Sequence record: AF547987
DNA: 39,043 nt
DNA from: Shigella phage Sf6
Direction: 5' to 3' (one strand)
Shown here: positions 13,719 through 39,043 of the stretch, piece after piece
How the letters are laid out: each line of letters starts with the position of its first letter
Numbering within the stretch: the stretch's first letter is position 1
Notes under the pieces: model-generated
What the model was told of the DNA's origin: nothing
Databases searched by the model: none
The model's input: the letters and a program-made list of their open reading frames with translations, nothing else
Program-made: the position numbers and the translations under genes

Positions 13719-15590
13719 ATGACAGACATTATAACCAATGTTGTAATTGGGATGCCTTCGCAACTCTTCACTATGGCTCGTTCTTTTAAAGCCGTAGCCA
13801 ATGGCAAAATTTATATCGGTAAAATTGACACTGACCCGGTAAATCCTGAAAACCAGATTCAGGTTTATGTAGAGAATGAAGACGGATCTCACGTCCCTGT
13901 TTCTCAGCCAATTGTTATCAATGCTGCCGGATATCCTGTGTACAACGGGCAGATTGCCAAATTTGTAACTGAGCAAGGCCATTCAATGGCTGTATATGAT
14001 GCGTATGGTTCGCAGCAGTTCTATTTTCAGAATGTGCTGAAGTACGACCCTGATCAGTTCGGTCCGGATTTAATTGAGCAACTAGCTCAATCCGGTAAGT
14101 ATTCGCAGGATAACACCAAAGGCGATGCCATGATTGGCGTCAAGCAGCCTTTACCAAAAGCAGTTTTAAGAACTCAGCATGACAAAAATAAAGAAGCAAT
14201 AAGTATCCTGGATTTTGGTGTTATTGATGATGGTGTGACAGATAATTACCAGGCAATACAAAATGCAATAGATGCCGTTGCTTCACTACCCTCCGGCGGG
14301 GAGCTGTTTATCCCTGCGAGCAACCAAGCGGTTGGGTATATTGTTGGATCCACTTTGCTTATTCCTGGCGGTGTTAACATCAGAGGGGTTGGTAAGGCAT
14401 CGCAACTCCGAGCAAAAAGCGGACTTACAGGATCTGTGTTAAGGCTGTCTTATGATTCAGACACTATCGGCCGTTATCTGAGAAATATACGAGTAACTGG
14501 TAATAACACCTGCAATGGTATTGACACAAACATTACAGCAGAAGACTCTGTCATCAGACAGGTTTATGGCTGGGTATTTGATAATGTAATGGTGAATGAA
14601 GTTGAAACCGCTTATTTAATGCAAGGGCTCTGGCACTCAAAATTTATAGCATGTCAGGCTGGAACCTGTAGAGTCGGTCTTCACTTTTTAGGCCAGTGCG
14701 TAAGTGTTAGTGTCAGCTCCTGCCATTTCAGCAGAGGAAATTATTCTGCTGATGAAAGCTTTGGCATCAGGATTCAGCCTCAAACGTATGCGTGGTCGTC
14801 AGAGGCAGTTAGGTCAGAAGCAATAATTTTAGACAGTGAGACCATGTGCATTGGTTTTAAAAATGCCGTCTATGTTCATGATTGCCTTGATTTGCATATG
14901 GAACAACTGGATTTAGATTATTGCGGCTCAACAGGCGTGGTTATAGAGAATGTAAACGGAGGATTTTCTTTCTCAAACTCATGGATAGCAGCAGATGCCG
15001 ATGGCACTGAACAATTTACGGGGATATATTTTAGAACGCCGACCTCAACGCAGTCACATAAAATTGTCAGTGGTGTTCATATCAACACTGCAAACAAAAA
15101 CACGGCTGCAAACAATCAAAGTATAGCGATAGAACAGTCGGCGATCTTCGTCTTTGTAAGTGGTTGTACGTTAACTGGTGATGAATGGGCTGTAAATATT
15201 GTCGACATCAATGAATGTGTTTCTTTCGATAAGTGCATATTCAATAAGCCTCTACGCTATCTTCGTAGCGGTGGCGTGTCAGTTACTGACTGTTATTTGG
15301 CTGGCATTACCGAGGTGCAGAAACCGGAAGGCAGATACAATACGTATCGTGGCTGTTCAGGCGTACCGTCTGTAAATGGGATCATTAATGTCCCAGTTGC
15401 GGTAGGTGCCACAAGCGGATCTGCAGCTATACCGAACCCGGGGAACCTGACATACAGAGTAAGAAGCCTTTTTGGTGACCCTGCATCAAGTGGTGACAAG
15501 GTTAGTGTTTCCGGGGTGACAATTAATGTTACTCGCCCAAGCCCAGTAGGAGTCGCGCTGCCTTCAATGGTTGAGTATCTGGCCATCTGA
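13719..15590 (+). CDS. tailspike protein (endorhamnosidase-type, Sf6-like)
   Basis: 623-aa ORF; N-terminal head-binding domain resembles P22 tailspike ([26 protein letters not shown]), remainder is different; last gene of the late operon. Confidence 0.85.
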
Positions 15591-24745: not shown

Positions 24746-24803
24746 ATATCACCTTGATTGTAATAAGCATGAAATTATTTACGGACAAAAATAAAGGCCA
24801 CCA

Positions 24804-25004
24804 TCAGGCAGCCTTGTTATTCTGTTTACCAAGTTCTCTGGCAATCATTGCCGTCGTTCGTATTGCCCATTTATCGACACATTTCCCATCTTCCATTACA
24901 GGAAACATTTCTTCAGGCTTAACCATGCATTCCGATTGCAGCTTGCATCCATTGCATCGCTTGAATTGTCCACACCATTGATTTTTATCAATAGTCGTAG
25001 TCAT
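24804..25004 (-). CDS. hypothetical protein (Cys-rich)
   Basis: 66-aa ORF in the early-left operon. Confidence 0.4.
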   Translation of the reverse strand: MTTTIDKNQWCGQFKRCNGCKLQSECMVKPEEMFPVMEDGKCVDKWAIRTTAMIARELGKQNNKAA

Positions 25005-35493: not shown

Positions 35494-36002
35494 GAGAACT
35501 AAACCTCACCAAAGAACAGCATGAGTGGCTGAATGGCTGGCTTGAACTGTGGGGCGCATGGGTTTATTCAGGTCGTCTGGAAAAGCGCATGAGCAGCGTA
35601 ATAGCGAAGTTCATGGAGAGCGTAGAGCCGGGAAGAGTTATGACAAGGCCAATGTGCAATGATGATGATGGAATGTTGATTTCTCAGGTCGTCGATTCCG
35701 TCATGTACATTGACAAGAAAGCCTTTGGCATCCTCCTCAGCTACTACGCTCATGGTTCATCTAAGCGAGCAATTGCATCCTACTATCACGCGACTGCAAA
35801 GCCACGCAAGATGTGTGGACGTGGTGGCGAGGGATGGAGAAAACCTTCACTGGCAACCTGTAGAAACGAAATTGACGACATCCTGAAAGCGTCATTATTT
35901 GTTTTATACCAGCCAATGCAAAATGCTTTCAAAATGCGTAAACGTGTTGAGAAAGTTAAGCATGTTGCTGTTAAAAGCCTTGACATGCAATTAGCCATTT
36001 AG
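35484..36002 (+). CDS. Q: late-gene antiterminator Q (non-lambda type)
   Basis: 172-aa GTG-initiated ORF directly upstream of pR'; WGAW and CNDDDG motifs resemble the phage 82/DLP12-type Q family rather than lambda Q. Confidence 0.7.
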
Positions 36003-36009
36003 CCATAAT
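35980..36009 (+). promoter_or_regulatory. late promoter pR' candidate
   Basis: TTGACA at 35980-35985, 18-bp spacer, CATAAT at 36004-36009, immediately after the Q stop. Confidence 0.5.
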
Positions 36010-36020
36010 TAGAAGGTAAG

Positions 36021-36062
36021 CTGCCGTTAGTGACTCTTAAGTTGCAACGGTGGCTTTTTTAT
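36021..36062 (+). terminator. tR'-like terminator candidate downstream of pR'
   Basis: Imperfect hairpin around CCGTT...AACGG followed by GGCTTTTTTATTT; stem assignment uncertain. Confidence 0.4.
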
Positions 36063-36064
36063 TT

Positions 36065-36139
36065 GGGTCAGTCGTATAAAGGTCATTACGGAAGGCTGTT
36101 AACCTTCTTATCGTGGTTCGAGTCCACGCTGTCCCGCCA
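36065..36139 (+). tRNA. tRNA-Asn (anticodon GTT), with two stem mismatches
   Basis: Hand-folded cloverleaf: anticodon arm GAAGG-CTGTTAA-CCTTC, T-arm CGTGG-TTCGAGT-CCACG, 3' CCA; T:T mismatches in acceptor (4:69) and D stems. Confidence 0.55.
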
Positions 36140-36144
36140 AACAT

Positions 36145-36220
36145 GCTGGTTTAGCTCCAATGGTAGAGCAGTCGCCTTGTAAGCGAATGGGTAGCGGTTC
36201 AAGTCCGTTAACCAGCACCA
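36145..36220 (+). tRNA. tRNA-Thr (anticodon TGT)
   Basis: Hand-folded 76-nt cloverleaf: perfect 7-bp acceptor stem GCTGGTT/AACCAGC, D stem GCTC/GAGC, anticodon loop CTTGTAA, T-loop TTCAAGT, 3' ACCA. Confidence 0.7.
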
Positions 36221-36462
36221 TAACTGAGCCGTAGCCACTGGCTATCCTAGATTCATCAGTGATAGTTATGCTGCGGACTTCTACACATGACCTTCGTGAA
36301 AGCGGGTGGCATGAGGTTGCGCTAACAACCTCCTGCCGCTTTGCCCGTGCATATCGGTCACGAACAAATCTGATTACTAAACACAGTAGCCTGGATTTGT
36401 TCTATCAGTAATCGACCTTATTCCTAATTAAATAGAGCAAATCCCCTTATTGGGGGTAAGAC

Positions 36463-36786
36463 ATGAAGATGCCAGAAAAACATGACCTGTTAGCCGCCAT
36501 TCTCGCGGCAAAGGAACAAGGCATCGGGGCAATCCTTGCGTTTGCAATGGCGTACCTTCGCGGCAGATATAATGGCGGTGCGTTTACAAAAACAGTAATC
36601 GACGCAACGATGTGCGCCATTATCGCCTGGTTCATTCGTGACCTTCTCGACTTCGCCGGACTAAGTAGCAATCTCGCTTATATAACGAGCGTGTTCATCG
36701 GCTACATCGGTACTGACTCGATTGGTTCGCTTATCAAACGCTTCGCTGCTAAAAAAGCCGGAGTAGAAGATGGTGGAAATCAATAA
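36463..36786 (+). CDS. S: holin S (class I, dual-start)
   Basis: Begins [34 protein letters not shown] with the Met1-Lys2-Met3 dual start; sdi-like hairpin TCCCC-ttatt-GGGGG upstream. Confidence 0.95.
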
Positions 36787-37246
36787 TCAACGTAAGGCGT
36801 TCCTCGATATGCTGGCGTGGTCAGAGGGGACTGATAACGGACGTCAGAAAACCAGAAATCATGGTTATGACGTCATTGTTGGCGGAGAGCTATTCACTGA
36901 TTACTCCGATCACCCTCGCAAACTTGTCACGCTAAACCCAAAACTCGAATCAACAGCAGCCGGACGTTACCAGCTTCTTTCCCGTTGGTGGGATGCCTAT
37001 CGTAAGCAGCTTGGCCTGAAAGACTTCTCTCCGAAAAGCCAGGACGCCGTGGCACTGCAACAGATTAAAGAACGTGGCGCTTTACCGATGATTGATCGCG
37101 GTGATATTCGTCAGGCAATTGACCGTTGCAGCAATATCTGGGCTTCACTGCCGGGCGCTGGTTATGGTCAGTTCGAGCATAAGGCTGACAGCCTGATTAC
37201 AAAATTTAAAGAAGCAGGCGGAACGGTCAGAGAGATTGATGTATGA
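36770..37246 (+). CDS. R: endolysin R (lytic transglycosylase)
   Basis: 158-aa ORF overlapping the S stop; recognised as lambda R. Confidence 0.95.
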
Positions 37247-37680
37247 GCAGAGTCACCGCAATTATCTCCGCTCTGGTTATTTGCATCATCGTCTGCCTGT
37301 CATGGGCTGTTAATCATTACCGTGATAATGCAATCGCCTACAAAGAGCAGCGCGATAAAGCCACATCCATCATCGCTGATATGCAGAAGCGGCAACATGA
37401 TGTAGCAGAACTTGACGCCAGATACACAAAGGAGCTTGCTGATGCTAACGCGACTATCGAAAGTCTCCGTGCTGATGTTTCTGCTGGTCGTAAACGCCTG
37501 CAAGTCGCCGCCACCTGTGCAAAGTCAACGACCGGAGCCAGCAGCATGGGCGATGGAGAAAGCCCAAGACTTACAGCAGATGCTGAACTCAATTATTACC
37601 GTCTCCGAAGTGGAATCGACAGGATAACCGCGCAGGTTAACTACCTGCAGGAGTACATCAGGACGCAATGCCTTCGATGA
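37243..37680 (+). CDS. Rz: i-spanin Rz
   Basis: N-terminal TM segment ([18 protein letters not shown]) then coiled-coil; overlaps the R stop. Confidence 0.9.
37442..37627 (+). CDS. Rz1: o-spanin Rz1 (lipoprotein embedded in Rz, +1 frame)
   Basis: ATG at 37442 preceded by AAGGAG; lipoprotein signal [20 protein letters not shown] then a proline-rich segment; wholly inside Rz. Confidence 0.75.
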
Positions 37681-38116
37681 TAGCGATAATTTTACTCATC
37701 ATCCTTCACATCTGGCTCTGTAGACAGGGTGGTGATCACTTCTGGAGTAAATCCAGATTAAACATCTCATTGCTGATGCTTGATATTGAGCATCTGGCGC
37801 GCAGTAAGGGGCTGCGTTGAGATAAGAGCCAGTTCATTACAAAGCCTATCTACGGGTGGGCTTGATAATGAAACCGTGATTTACATCCCTCACAATCCAG
37901 GTATGTAAAGCTGGATTATGCGAGAACGGATTTAACTAAATCTGTGCACCACCAGTTACGGCAGTACCACGAAGCAACCCAAGCCAGTAAGTGGGGAAAT
38001 AACACTGGCAGCCACTGAAAGATGAACCTCCAGCCTTATGGCAAAAAAGATTCTTTGTGGTGGCGGACTGATGGAAAGACATCCTAATCAAGCAACCACT
38101 CCACAGGGTCATAATT

Positions 38117-38497
38117 ATGAACGGCCAGCAAATCGAAAAAGAAATCGTTGAGAAAGGCAAAACGGCACCGCGAATCACCCCGCAGCACATCGAAGACGTG
38201 ATTAAAAGCGAGCATTACTTTACTGCTTATGATGGACGAAATGGTGCCATTTCCAGCAACGAATATTGTGGCAGGGAAAAACCAGAGGAAGGCGATCGTG
38301 ATTTATCACCATTGAAGTTGCTCACTTTCTGCGTACTGGTGCTGAAGAATGGCTTCACCGTCACCGGAGAGAGTGCCTGTGCAAGCCCGGAAAACTTTGA
38401 TGCAGAAATTGGCCGGAAGATTGCCCGGCAAAATGCTGTAAACAAAATCTGGATGCTCGAAGGTTACTTGCTGAAGCAGAAGCTAAGCGAACAGTAG
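38117..38497 (+). CDS. hypothetical protein (possibly Gp49/Sf6 gene 66-type family)
   Basis: 126-aa ORF between lysis genes and terS; family assignment from memory only. Confidence 0.45.
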   Translation: MNGQQIEKEIVEKGKTAPRITPQHIEDVIKSEHYFTAYDGRNGAISSNEYCGREKPEEGDRDLSPLKLLTFCVLVLKNGFTVTGESACASPENFDAEIGRKIARQNAVNKIWMLEGYLLKQKLSEQ

Positions 38498-38600
38498 TTA
38501 TTACAAAAGCCATTCCCTACAGAGTGGCTTTGATAATGGCTTATACCCTACACGGGATAACTTAACTGATATCCCTTTTAACGGATAAACGGAGCCAACA

Positions 38601-38843
38601 ATGGCAGAGATTATTCCCATGACTGAAGAACAGAAATTCCAGTTAGAGATTTACAAACTGGTCATGAACCAGAACGCAGCTGCAGAGGAAGCATTTCAGT
38701 TCATTGGCACTGACGAACTGAAGCTTGAGCTATTCAAAATTCACTTCCAGTCAGGCGGCGCCAATTCGGATATCACGACCCGCACTATCGAAGCGGTGCG
38801 TAAATCGAAGGAAGCGTTAGACCTGTTCACCACCGGAGCATGA
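38601..38843 (+). CDS. hypothetical protein
   Basis: 80-aa ORF. Confidence 0.45.
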   Translation: MAEIIPMTEEQKFQLEIYKLVMNQNAAAEEAFQFIGTDELKLELFKIHFQSGGANSDITTRTIEAVRKSKEALDLFTTGA

Positions 38844-38844
38844 T

Positions 38845-39036
38845 GTGAGCCGCGTAATCAATTTGGGTAAGGAGAAGAAATTCCCAATTACTCAAGAGCT
38901 ATACGAGAGGCTGGAAAGCGTCATCCATGATTATGGTGAAATCAGTGTATGTGAGGCGATTGGCACACTCGAATTGCTGAAGCAGTCATTGATTGAAAGC
39001 ATGAAGAGCCAACGACCTGAAATAACAACTAAGTGA
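38845..39036 (+). CDS. hypothetical protein
   Basis: 63-aa GTG-initiated ORF ending 7 bp before the window end, which is followed circularly by terS. Confidence 0.4.
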   Translation: MSRVINLGKEKKFPITQELYERLESVIHDYGEISVCEAIGTLELLKQSLIESMKSQRPEITTK

Positions 39037-39043
39037 GATAAAT

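Follow-up and report, generated by a model that had tools for sequence, protein, structure and literature searches.

Two-tier hairpins flanking an accessory gene of Shigella phage Sf6 are candidate RNase III-type processing sites of the late mRNA and lie at cassette joints

The DNA analysed here (the window, i.e. the whole stretch of 39,043 nt from Shigella phage Sf6) reads as a complete P22-like phage genome. The terminase genes terS and terL occupy its left end, with terS starting at window position 1. The features relevant to this study lie towards the right end:

36065-36220: tRNA-Asn and tRNA-Thr
36463-37680, + strand: lysis genes
37243-37680, + strand: Rz spanin gene, the end of the lysis module (PF03245, E 7e-36)
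37668-37820, + strand: 50-aa ORF upstream of hairpin copy 1
37833-37872, + strand: hairpin copy 1, type A (covariance model 60.3 bits, E 8e-13)
37959-38083, + strand: highly conserved non-coding block of ~125 nt, CGGCAGUAC...GAUGGAAAGACAUC, located after hairpin 1 and before the cassette gene
38117-38497, + strand: bracketed cassette gene, a 126-aa ORF (Pfam PF13876, N4 Gp49 / phage Sf6 gene 66, E 3.6e-35)
38496-38541, + strand: hairpin copy 2, type B (covariance model 60.8 bits, E 6e-13)
38541-38560, no strand: palindrome 1, 20 bp, (T/A)TATCC-N8-GGATAA (TTATACCCTACACGGGATAA), directly 3' of hairpin 2
38569-38588, no strand: palindrome 2, 20 bp (ATATCCCTTTTAACGGATAA), 28 bp after palindrome 1 and ending 12 nt 5' of the DUF2560 ATG
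38601-38843, + strand: DUF2560 gene (P22 orf80 / HK620 hkbM family)
38845-39036, + strand: small ORF between the DUF2560 gene and the right end

The presence of Asn and Thr tRNAs at this place in Shigella phage Sf6 agrees with the published description (PMC8022706). On the upstream side, the variable region with the hairpins is bounded by Rz. The lysis genes and the three small ORFs at the right end are all encoded on the + strand, which is the direction of the late operon. The gp49-family ORF is missing from many relatives that retain both of its flanks. In relatives without this gene, the conserved non-coding block runs directly into a hairpin of type C (see below), and in P22 it is joined to the 3' end of rha. 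A small ORF that overlaps the block (MAKKILCGGGLMERH..., 38038-38151) is probably no gene; its C-terminus varies with whatever comes next.

An earlier note on this DNA had described an imperfect direct repeat on both sides of the 126-aa ORF, each copy being able to form an AAGCC...GGCTT stem. We found the first repeat, ATTACAAAGCCTATCTACGGGTGGGCTTGATAATG, at 37836-37870, and the second, ATTACAAAAGCCATTCCCTACAGAGTGGCTTTGATAATG, at 38500-38538, so that the end noted for the second one lay 2 nt too far. The two copies indeed bracket the ORF at 38117-38497. However, this ORF is not the gene directly before terS, as had been assumed, because the DUF2560 gene (38601-38843) and a further small ORF (38845-39036) intervene. 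The proposed stem is real, although it represents just a part of a longer, two-tier hairpin, which is built as follows in the two copies:

37833-37839 / 37866-37872: copy 1, lower stem, UUCAUUA / UAAUGAA
37840-37841 and 37864-37865: copy 1, internal loop, CA and GA
37842-37850 / 37855-37863: copy 1, upper stem, AAGCCUAUC / GGUGGGCUU, with two U.G pairs
37851-37854: copy 1, apical loop, UACG
38496-38503 / 38534-38541: copy 2, lower stem, AGUUAUUA / UAAUGGCU, with two U.G pairs
38504-38505 and 38532-38533: copy 2, internal loop, CA and GA
38506-38515 / 38522-38531: copy 2, upper stem, AAAGCCAUUC / GAGUGGCUUU
38516-38521: copy 2, apical loop, CCUACA

Both copies thus share one architecture, consisting of a lower stem (7-8 bp in the window) around an AUUA/UAAU core, a 2x2 internal loop with CA on the 5' side and GA on the 3' side, and an upper stem of 9-10 bp, which includes the AAGCC/GGCUU of the earlier note and is closed by 4-6 unpaired nt. 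Copy 1 begins 12 nt past the stop codon of the 50-aa ORF at 37668-37820, and the foot of copy 2 overlaps the TAG stop codon (38495-38497) of the gp49-family ORF. The predicted folds are more stable than expected from composition, with a ΔG of -20.7 kcal/mol (z -4.2) for copy 1 and of -20.6 kcal/mol (z -5.4) for copy 2, and none of 200 shuffles folded as well in either case. The complementary strands fold more weakly (-15.7 and -16.0 kcal/mol for copies 1 and 2, respectively), because several of the pairs are G.U. A search for the arm pattern ATTACAAA-N14-28-TTGATAATG on both strands of the 39-kb window returned just these two sites, and the same pattern matched in 0 of 100 dinucleotide-preserving shuffles. 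When scanned with the covariance model described below, the window yielded nothing besides the two copies above a match of 13 bits (E 0.6) at 14527-14590. This candidate third copy lies inside the tailspike ORF, has a fold z of -1.3 against shuffles and was rejected as a chance match. An Rfam covariance scan of 35500-39043 at E up to 1 gave no match at the hairpins and retrieved the two tRNAs and a chance snoRNA match only.

We found more than 250 further copies of the hairpin in phage contigs and in prophages of about 25 Enterobacterales species. The locus set consisted of the window, four annotated relatives and 80 viral contigs chosen for their DUF2560 homologues. Scanning it for the architecture alone (stem, CA, stem, loop, stem, GA, stem) gave 106 matches on the gene strand and 0 on the opposite strand, and all of them but one, a probable false positive, lie between Rz and DUF2560. 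Almost every locus also has a family hairpin in a window chosen by position only, ~100 nt 5' of the DUF2560 ATG; when the loci are anchored on this start codon, the hairpin ends ~60 nt 5' of it in almost all of them. A covariance model built from 31 distinct copies and run over 628 kb returned 132 sense-strand matches at 50-64 bits, and nothing else exceeded 25 bits. The copies fall into three main versions (A, B and C), whose stems differ by compensatory changes. Furthermore, we searched the viral collection in a structure-blind manner, using the outer arms alone (CCATTACA-N20-30-GATAATGG). The matches were sharply divided, as 76 of 120 carry an uninterrupted upper stem of 8-11 bp flush with the CA/GA loop and 44 of 120 have 0-4 bp there, with none in between. 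This search also brought up many new upper stems, e.g. AAGCGUCUC/GGGGCGCUU, GCAGGCAUUC/GAGUGCCUGC and GAAGCUCUUC/GAGGGGCUUC.

With one genome taken per bacterial species, the type A pattern is found in about 25 species. They include members of Enterobacter, Leclercia, Kluyvera, Pseudocitrobacter, Siccibacter, Franconibacter, Yokenella, Superficieibacter, Scandinavium, Pantoea and Budvicia as well as E. coli. A phage genome holds 1-3 copies. P22 has one (40307-40351, 62 bits), which overlaps the doubtful 'orf25', and HK620 has two (2328-2371 and 2581-2625 of contig L004). The feature is unannotated in the records of P22, HK620 and the others examined, and the searchable literature yielded no account of this hairpin family; a full-text search with the arm sequences gave unrelated primers only, and one for conserved lambdoid stem-loops gave nothing relevant. 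The lambda genome and the K-12 prophages DLP12 and Qin contain no copy, and the element is therefore dispensable for lambdoid late expression in general. The earlier note had suggested searching related phages for the motif at module junctions, and there it recurs, in hundreds of related phages and prophages and always between the lysis genes and the terminase region.

In an alignment of 31 distinct copies, 94.5% of the cells are paired, compared to 32-50% when the partners are slid against each other. Ten of the 17 pairs have changed on both sides, and no shuffle attains the observed covariation score. RNAalifold independently arrived at a nearly identical structure. A second alignment, of 47 distinct copies, was made with cmsearch from loci fetched by a pattern that fixes the outer arms only; here 94.1% of the cells are paired, and double changes occur in 12 of the 17 pairs. 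Four parts are invariant, namely the AUUA/UAAU core, CA and GA of the internal loop, and a U.G pair that lies three positions beneath the apical loop. Since compensatory substitutions keep the base pairing, the motif is a selected structure and not a mere shared patch of sequence, which agrees with the suggestion of a regulatory structure made at the outset.

The pairing is moreover kept on one strand. Among 123 distinct copies, we counted 175 G.U pairs and 15 A.C pairs in the sense orientation, in a count that is biased by hairpin detectors that accept G.T as a pair. The asymmetry is nevertheless real, as the arm-only search revealed no hidden class of copies with stems interrupted by A.C. 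The mean folding energy is -20.6 kcal/mol for the sense and -15.5 kcal/mol for the antisense strand, the sense strand being the more stable one in 112 of 123 copies. In the oriented loci, every match above chance lies on the gene strand. Therefore, the G.U asymmetry and the fixed orientation point to the transcript, and not to duplex DNA, as the acting form. Taken together, we consider the hairpin to be very probably a functional RNA structure.

The same data bear on the notion that the element acts at the level of DNA, either as a functionless patch of homology or as a site for a recombinase or a structure-specific nuclease on extruded or single-stranded DNA. Such a role would suit the shuffling of flanks exactly at the hairpin edges and the existence of recombinant forms (see below), and the recombination functions Erf and NinG/Rap are annotated in the P22 record. 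However, a neutral patch of homology would lose its pairing, which compensatory changes keep here. A duplex site would tolerate neither G.T on one strand only nor hold one orientation relative to transcription, and the loci examined show no dedicated recombinase linked to the element. We thus regard a purely DNA-level element as improbable.

The hairpins sit between same-strand ORFs of the lysis-to-terminase region. They are preceded by lysis genes and followed by small accessory genes, HNH, terS and terL, and this neighbourhood is the same in phages with several different packaging modules. In many loci, an ORF ends within 0-6 nt of the hairpin. In 43 of 103 distinct contexts, the spacing between the end of a stop triplet and ATTNCA is exactly 2 nt, compared to a chance expectation at this spacing that we estimate at roughly 5%. 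The upstream ORFs that end there are unrelated and use all three stop codons (...TAG-CC-ATTACA, ...TAA-CC-ATTACA, ...TGA-CC-ATTACA). A GTAG-like tetranucleotide 5' of the hairpin, as in REP elements, is a pattern accounted for by these stop codons. Some copies directly follow the T-run of a canonical terminator, and these lie 44-61 nt from the nearest stop codon. The next start codon may be as close as 3 nt to the hairpin or more than 700 nt away from it. We also considered a sequestered translation start, given that the 3' arm always reads UGAUAAUG and carries a purine-rich stretch 7-9 nt upstream. The ORFs in question span 3-30 codons and conserve neither frame nor sequence, and this candidate was discarded. 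In the P22-like prophage BTP1, the lytic genes are transcribed as one large polycistronic operon (PMC7067206), and in Sf6 the hairpins are probably transcribed within the late mRNA as well.

Stable, G+C-containing stems at the 3' ends of accessory genes might suggest rho-independent terminators that end independently transcribed morons. The hairpins are, however, not terminators, since the 3' context is T-rich in just 3 of 81 distinct cases, i.e. there is no U-tract, and a terminator scan found nothing at either copy in the window. Genuine terminators are present immediately upstream of some copies. Moreover, a promoter search of the + strand over 36000-39043 returned none of the sigma-70-like type. 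This makes moron terminators a hardly tenable explanation.

A serious rival comes from the placement itself. The hairpin could work like a REP element and without RNase III, either as a passive barrier to 3'-5' exonucleases or as a roadblock that stalls terminating ribosomes and thereby lowers the upstream accessory gene. The evidence for an RNA-level function speaks for it in the same way as for an RNase III site, and so do the stability of about -20 kcal/mol and the position flush with stop codons, which Liang, Rudd and Deutscher reportedly described in 2015 for REP elements attenuating translation. A hairpin of this kind leaves two observations unexplained, namely the invariant AUUA-CA / GA-UAAU foot beneath a freely drifting upper stem and the specific likeness to the RNase III sites of phage T7 described below. 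The copies that follow terminators, at 44-61 nt from a stop codon, do not fit it either. We therefore hold a REP-like barrier or roadblock to be rather unlikely, while treating it as the alternative to be taken most seriously.

The invariant foot and internal loop and the conserved U.G pair would also be compatible with a binding site for a sequence-specific RNA-binding protein, encoded by phage or host, through which neighbouring genes are controlled at the level of translation or decay. The two palindromes that often follow the hairpin might be involved, as the composite of hairpin and two palindromes recurs ahead of diverged DUF2560 genes. The palindromes are conserved in sequence, without covariation. 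We compared (T/A)TATCC-N8-GGATAA to the DnaA box, the Fur box, the NarL 7-2-7 arrangement and the lambda operators, and none of them fits well. P22 retains the hairpin and has lost the palindromes, no candidate protein co-occurs with the element, and the distance to the next start codon varies widely. Thus, a protein-binding site of this type appears unlikely.

Comparison of the loci revealed a second property of the hairpins. Similarity among relatives ends at the hairpin edges, which bears out the other proposal made for the repeats, that of short conserved linkers marking a module boundary; the flanking sequence changes exactly at these edges. Clustering the flanks of 257 instances gave 60 upstream and 52 downstream clusters in 98 combinations, and 13 downstream flank types are paired with more than one upstream type, with up to 13. 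Individual genomes illustrate the exchange. HK106 has no gp49 gene; there, hairpin A and the shared non-coding block are followed by a type C hairpin, beyond which the leader of the next gene is again shared. Phage Huey carries an extra gene inserted directly 5' of hairpin A. In two contigs (L030 and L064), a type A body is joined at GATAATG to a flank that is normal for types B and C, just as a crossover of two direct copies, such as the window contains, would produce. Because the foot is nearly identical in all copies, it would offer a short stretch of shared homology at which accessory cassettes could be swapped or deleted. In the window, the exchanged cassette would consist of the non-coding block and the gene 66 / gp49-family ORF. 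The joints probably arose by homologous or template-switch recombination.

One could go further and view the hairpins as dedicated cassette-exchange sites and the lysis-to-terminase region as an integron-like array, in which folded single-strand sites at the 3' end capture, swap or delete units of gene plus hairpin and any RNA function is secondary. We consider this very unlikely; its likeness to integron attC sites is taken up below.

We instead favour an RNase III-type processing site, for which the signals of phage T7 serve as the model. RNase III cuts the T7 early mRNA at five signals (PMC3867540), and reporter vectors make use of the sequence of one of them, R1.1, under the name 'RNase III splice site' (PMC6615863). 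Where a substrate has an internal loop, RNase III is confined to one cut, and protective hairpins remain at the 3' end (PMC1540722; PMC3867540). The T7 records contain no RNase III sites among the features shown. For the site positions we relied on the coordinates attributed to Dunn and Studier 1983; for R1.1, the use in vectors independently documents the sequence as an RNase III site. Folded in the same way as the lambdoid copies, the T7 sites form upper stems of 9-12 bp above an internal loop. When the lambdoid covariance model was run over both strands of the whole T7 genome, the upper stems of R1.1 (5861-5884) and R1 (3115-3134) ranked first and second, R18.5 fifth and R0.5 seventh. By our own arithmetic, the chance that four of the top seven matches fall on four of ten sites of ~25 nt within 80 kb is roughly 1e-7. 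In the reverse direction, a model built from only seven T7 sites placed copy 2 of the window second and third (the same locus, with one match per strand; E 0.04-0.05) and copy 1 fifth (E 0.38), and in P22 and lambda it ranked the P22 copy first (E 0.09). Its top match in the window is a terminator-like hairpin on the minus strand (24785-24818), so that its specificity is modest, and the E-values of the cross-family models are individually marginal (0.04-3). In a joint alignment, the upper stem of T7 R1.1 (AAGGUCAUUC/GAGUGGCCUU) and that of copy 2 agree at 17 of 20 stem positions. Two of the differences make up a single compensatory change from G-C to A-U, and the third turns U.G into C-G.

These findings suggest how the hairpin might work. 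It would be a cis-acting stem-loop that P22-like and other lambdoid phages carry in their late polycistronic mRNA, each copy directly following an accessory gene. If it works like T7 R1.1, host RNase III would bind the helix of ~20 positions and cut it about 12-14 nt away from the apical loop, in or beside the invariant region of the internal loop (AUUA-CA / GA-UAAU). Reading the cleavage coordinate of R1.1 against its fold, the cut there presumably lies 13 nt 3' of the loop, and the same distance would fall inside the invariant GAUAAU here. The invariant foot could thus represent the expected cleavage site together with the proximal box, and the conserved top of the stem the distal box. After cleavage, the upstream message would finish in a stable 3' hairpin that blocks 3'-5' exonucleases, and the segments for lysis, accessory functions and packaging would become independent of one another in stability and translation. 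Cleavage by RNase III, the position of the cut and the stabilising effect are put forward as predictions.

Several points weigh against this proposal, among them the small and symmetric internal loop, lower stems unlike those of T7, the marginal E-values and the absence of the element from lambda, DLP12 and Qin. The helix comprises 17-18 bp plus the 2x2 loop, i.e. 19-20 stacked positions, and is short compared to the ~22 bp of a good, full-affinity RNase III substrate, with shorter ones being cut less well (PMC1540722; PMC6212723). In addition, a 3' barrier looks redundant where a true terminator already precedes the hairpin. Weighing all of this, we assign a probability of about 0.5 to the reading that the repeats are hairpins for RNase III-type processing and 3' stabilisation of the late mRNA and double as recombination joints for accessory cassettes. 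The chances that the hairpin is specifically an RNase III site are, in our judgment, even.

If RNase III cleavage holds true, P22-like and many other lambdoid phages would process their long late mRNA at T7-like sites, and a functional RNA element would supply short conserved homology at mosaic joints. This bears on the old debate over phage mosaicism, in which 'boundary sequences' have been set against illegitimate recombination. For annotators, the covariance model offers a way to mark where cassettes meet in the hot spot of accessory genes that separates lysis from packaging genes. Small ORFs of doubtful status are flagged by it as well, as in the case of P22 orf25 with its hairpin overlap. 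The genes of this hot spot carry labels such as Rha, KilA-N, GIY-YIG, 'anti-CRISPR' and gp49.

Several known systems invite comparison. Integron attC sites are likewise imperfect palindromes at the 3' ends of cassette genes, with a structure that is conserved over sequence and one strand that folds better than the other; we regard this as an analogy only. The arms CCATTACA ... GATAATGG do not fit the R''/R' core sites (RYYYAAC / GTTRRRY), the copy number is low, and no linked recombinase was seen in the loci examined. REP elements are transcribed imperfect palindromes just past stop codons, which stabilise the upstream mRNA and are sites of rearrangement. Those of E. coli share with the hairpins an imperfect palindrome within about 15 nt of a stop codon and a position on the transcribed strand. 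In contrast, the hairpins number 1-3 per phage genome, were found only in phage and prophage contexts (lysis and packaging genes) among those examined, have no RAYT transposase associated with them and differ in sequence from the REP consensus.

The T7 RNase III signals (R0.3, R0.5, R1, R1.1 and R1.3, and also R4.7 and R18.5) resemble the hairpins more closely. They are likewise intercistronic and on the sense strand of a long polycistronic phage mRNA, and their two tiers are separated by an internal loop, with ~10 bp between this and the apical loop. In sequence, the upper stems are nearly identical as well (AAGGYC.. / ..GUGGCCUU in T7, AAAGCC.. / ..GUGGCUUU here), with a common U.G wobble near the top, and their 3' flank is AU-rich in both (UAUGAU in T7, GAUAAU here). 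The internal loop differs, being a symmetric 2x2 loop (CA/GA) here and larger and asymmetric in T7, and the lower stem of 5-8 bp with its invariant AUUA/UAAU core is unrelated to the T7 lower stems. The setting is also a different one, as the hairpins belong to the late operon of temperate lambdoid phages and lie at the joints of exchangeable accessory genes.

It is this last aspect that connects them to the lambdoid 'boundary sequences' (Clark et al. 2001, for HK620; Susskind and Botstein 1978), which, as cited in PMC3029335, were proposed to be foci of the homologous recombination that assorts modules. Judging from that account, the two have in common that they are short, conserved among lambdoid phages and located at module edges, and HK620 itself carries two copies of the hairpin. 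We draw this likeness to the concept rather than to the published sequences. What sets the element described here apart is that it is a covarying RNA structure, which likely has a function of its own.

The hairpin family is accompanied by further recurrent elements, listed here with the other features considered.

Features in the window and in two related phages
Window 38541-38560 and 38569-38588: pair of palindromes, each 20 bp, (T/A)TATCC-N8-GGATAA, in tandem, 28 bp apart
Window 37959-38083: non-coding block, ~125 nt
Window 24785-24818, minus strand: hairpin AAGGCUGCC-UGA-UGGUGGCCUU, then UUUAUUUUU
Window 36065-36220: tRNA-Asn (GTT) and tRNA-Thr (TGT)
P22 (NC_002371) 40307-40351: hairpin copy
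Phage Huey 1503-2003 and 2238-2618: two ORFs labelled 'anti-CRISPR protein'

The palindrome pair directly adjoins the 3' side of hairpin 2, the second two-tier RNA hairpin of the window, and the same pair was found 3' of hairpins in many unrelated contexts, where the element that follows varies between a gene start, a terminator and another hairpin. As the half-sites are conserved in sequence and do not covary, the palindromes suggest a protein-binding site, on either DNA or RNA. Some phages carry at least two hairpins with different upper-stem types within 100-600 nt and in the same orientation (L127, L149, L192, L150, L152, L112, L132, L138 and L095); in the first three of these loci, two palindromes stand between one hairpin and the next.

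The non-coding block, located between hairpin 1 and the gp49-family ORF, is nearly invariant in dozens of phages irrespective of the flanking genes. A small ORF begins within it with MAKKILCGGGLMERH (from 38038), its C-terminus not being conserved. Folding of the entire 37826-38120 region gave a z of -3.7, and an Rfam scan gave no match there. In P22, the block is joined to the end of rha (about 40170-40306) and the palindrome pair has been lost. The P22 hairpin copy overlaps the annotated 'orf25' (25 codons, 40329-40406); this ORF is probably a spurious call caused by the structured element.

The 3' arm reads UGAUAAUG in every hairpin copy (e.g., window 37863-37870 and 38531-38538) and contains an AUG overlapped by tandem stops and preceded, at a distance of 7-9 nt, by a purine-rich stretch. 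Mini-ORFs predicted to start here comprise 3-30 codons and are not conserved, and we therefore consider this pattern probably incidental.

Two sets of database labels deserve caution. The Huey 'anti-CRISPR' label covers the gp49-family ORF and an inserted 166-aa ORF; it looks like an unverified automatic annotation, since Pfam assigns the window orthologue of the former to the Gp49/Sf6 gene 66 family only. Moreover, near-identical enterobacterial phage sequence surrounds the hairpin in six contigs assigned to MAGs of Nanosynbacter, Bacillota, Phycisphaera and Collinsella (L215, L216, L222, L230, L234 and L235), which likely reflects mis-binning or contamination.

The top window match of a covariance model built from seven T7 RNase III sites was the minus-strand hairpin (E 0.01). 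Located where a 66-aa minus-strand ORF ends, it looks like an intrinsic terminator serving the leftward early operon.

Lastly, the tRNA pair is flanked by the late promoter region on one side and the holin gene on the other, in agreement with the published description of Shigella phage Sf6 (PMC8022706). Together with terS at position 1, this suggests that the window is a complete genome of the Sf6 type.
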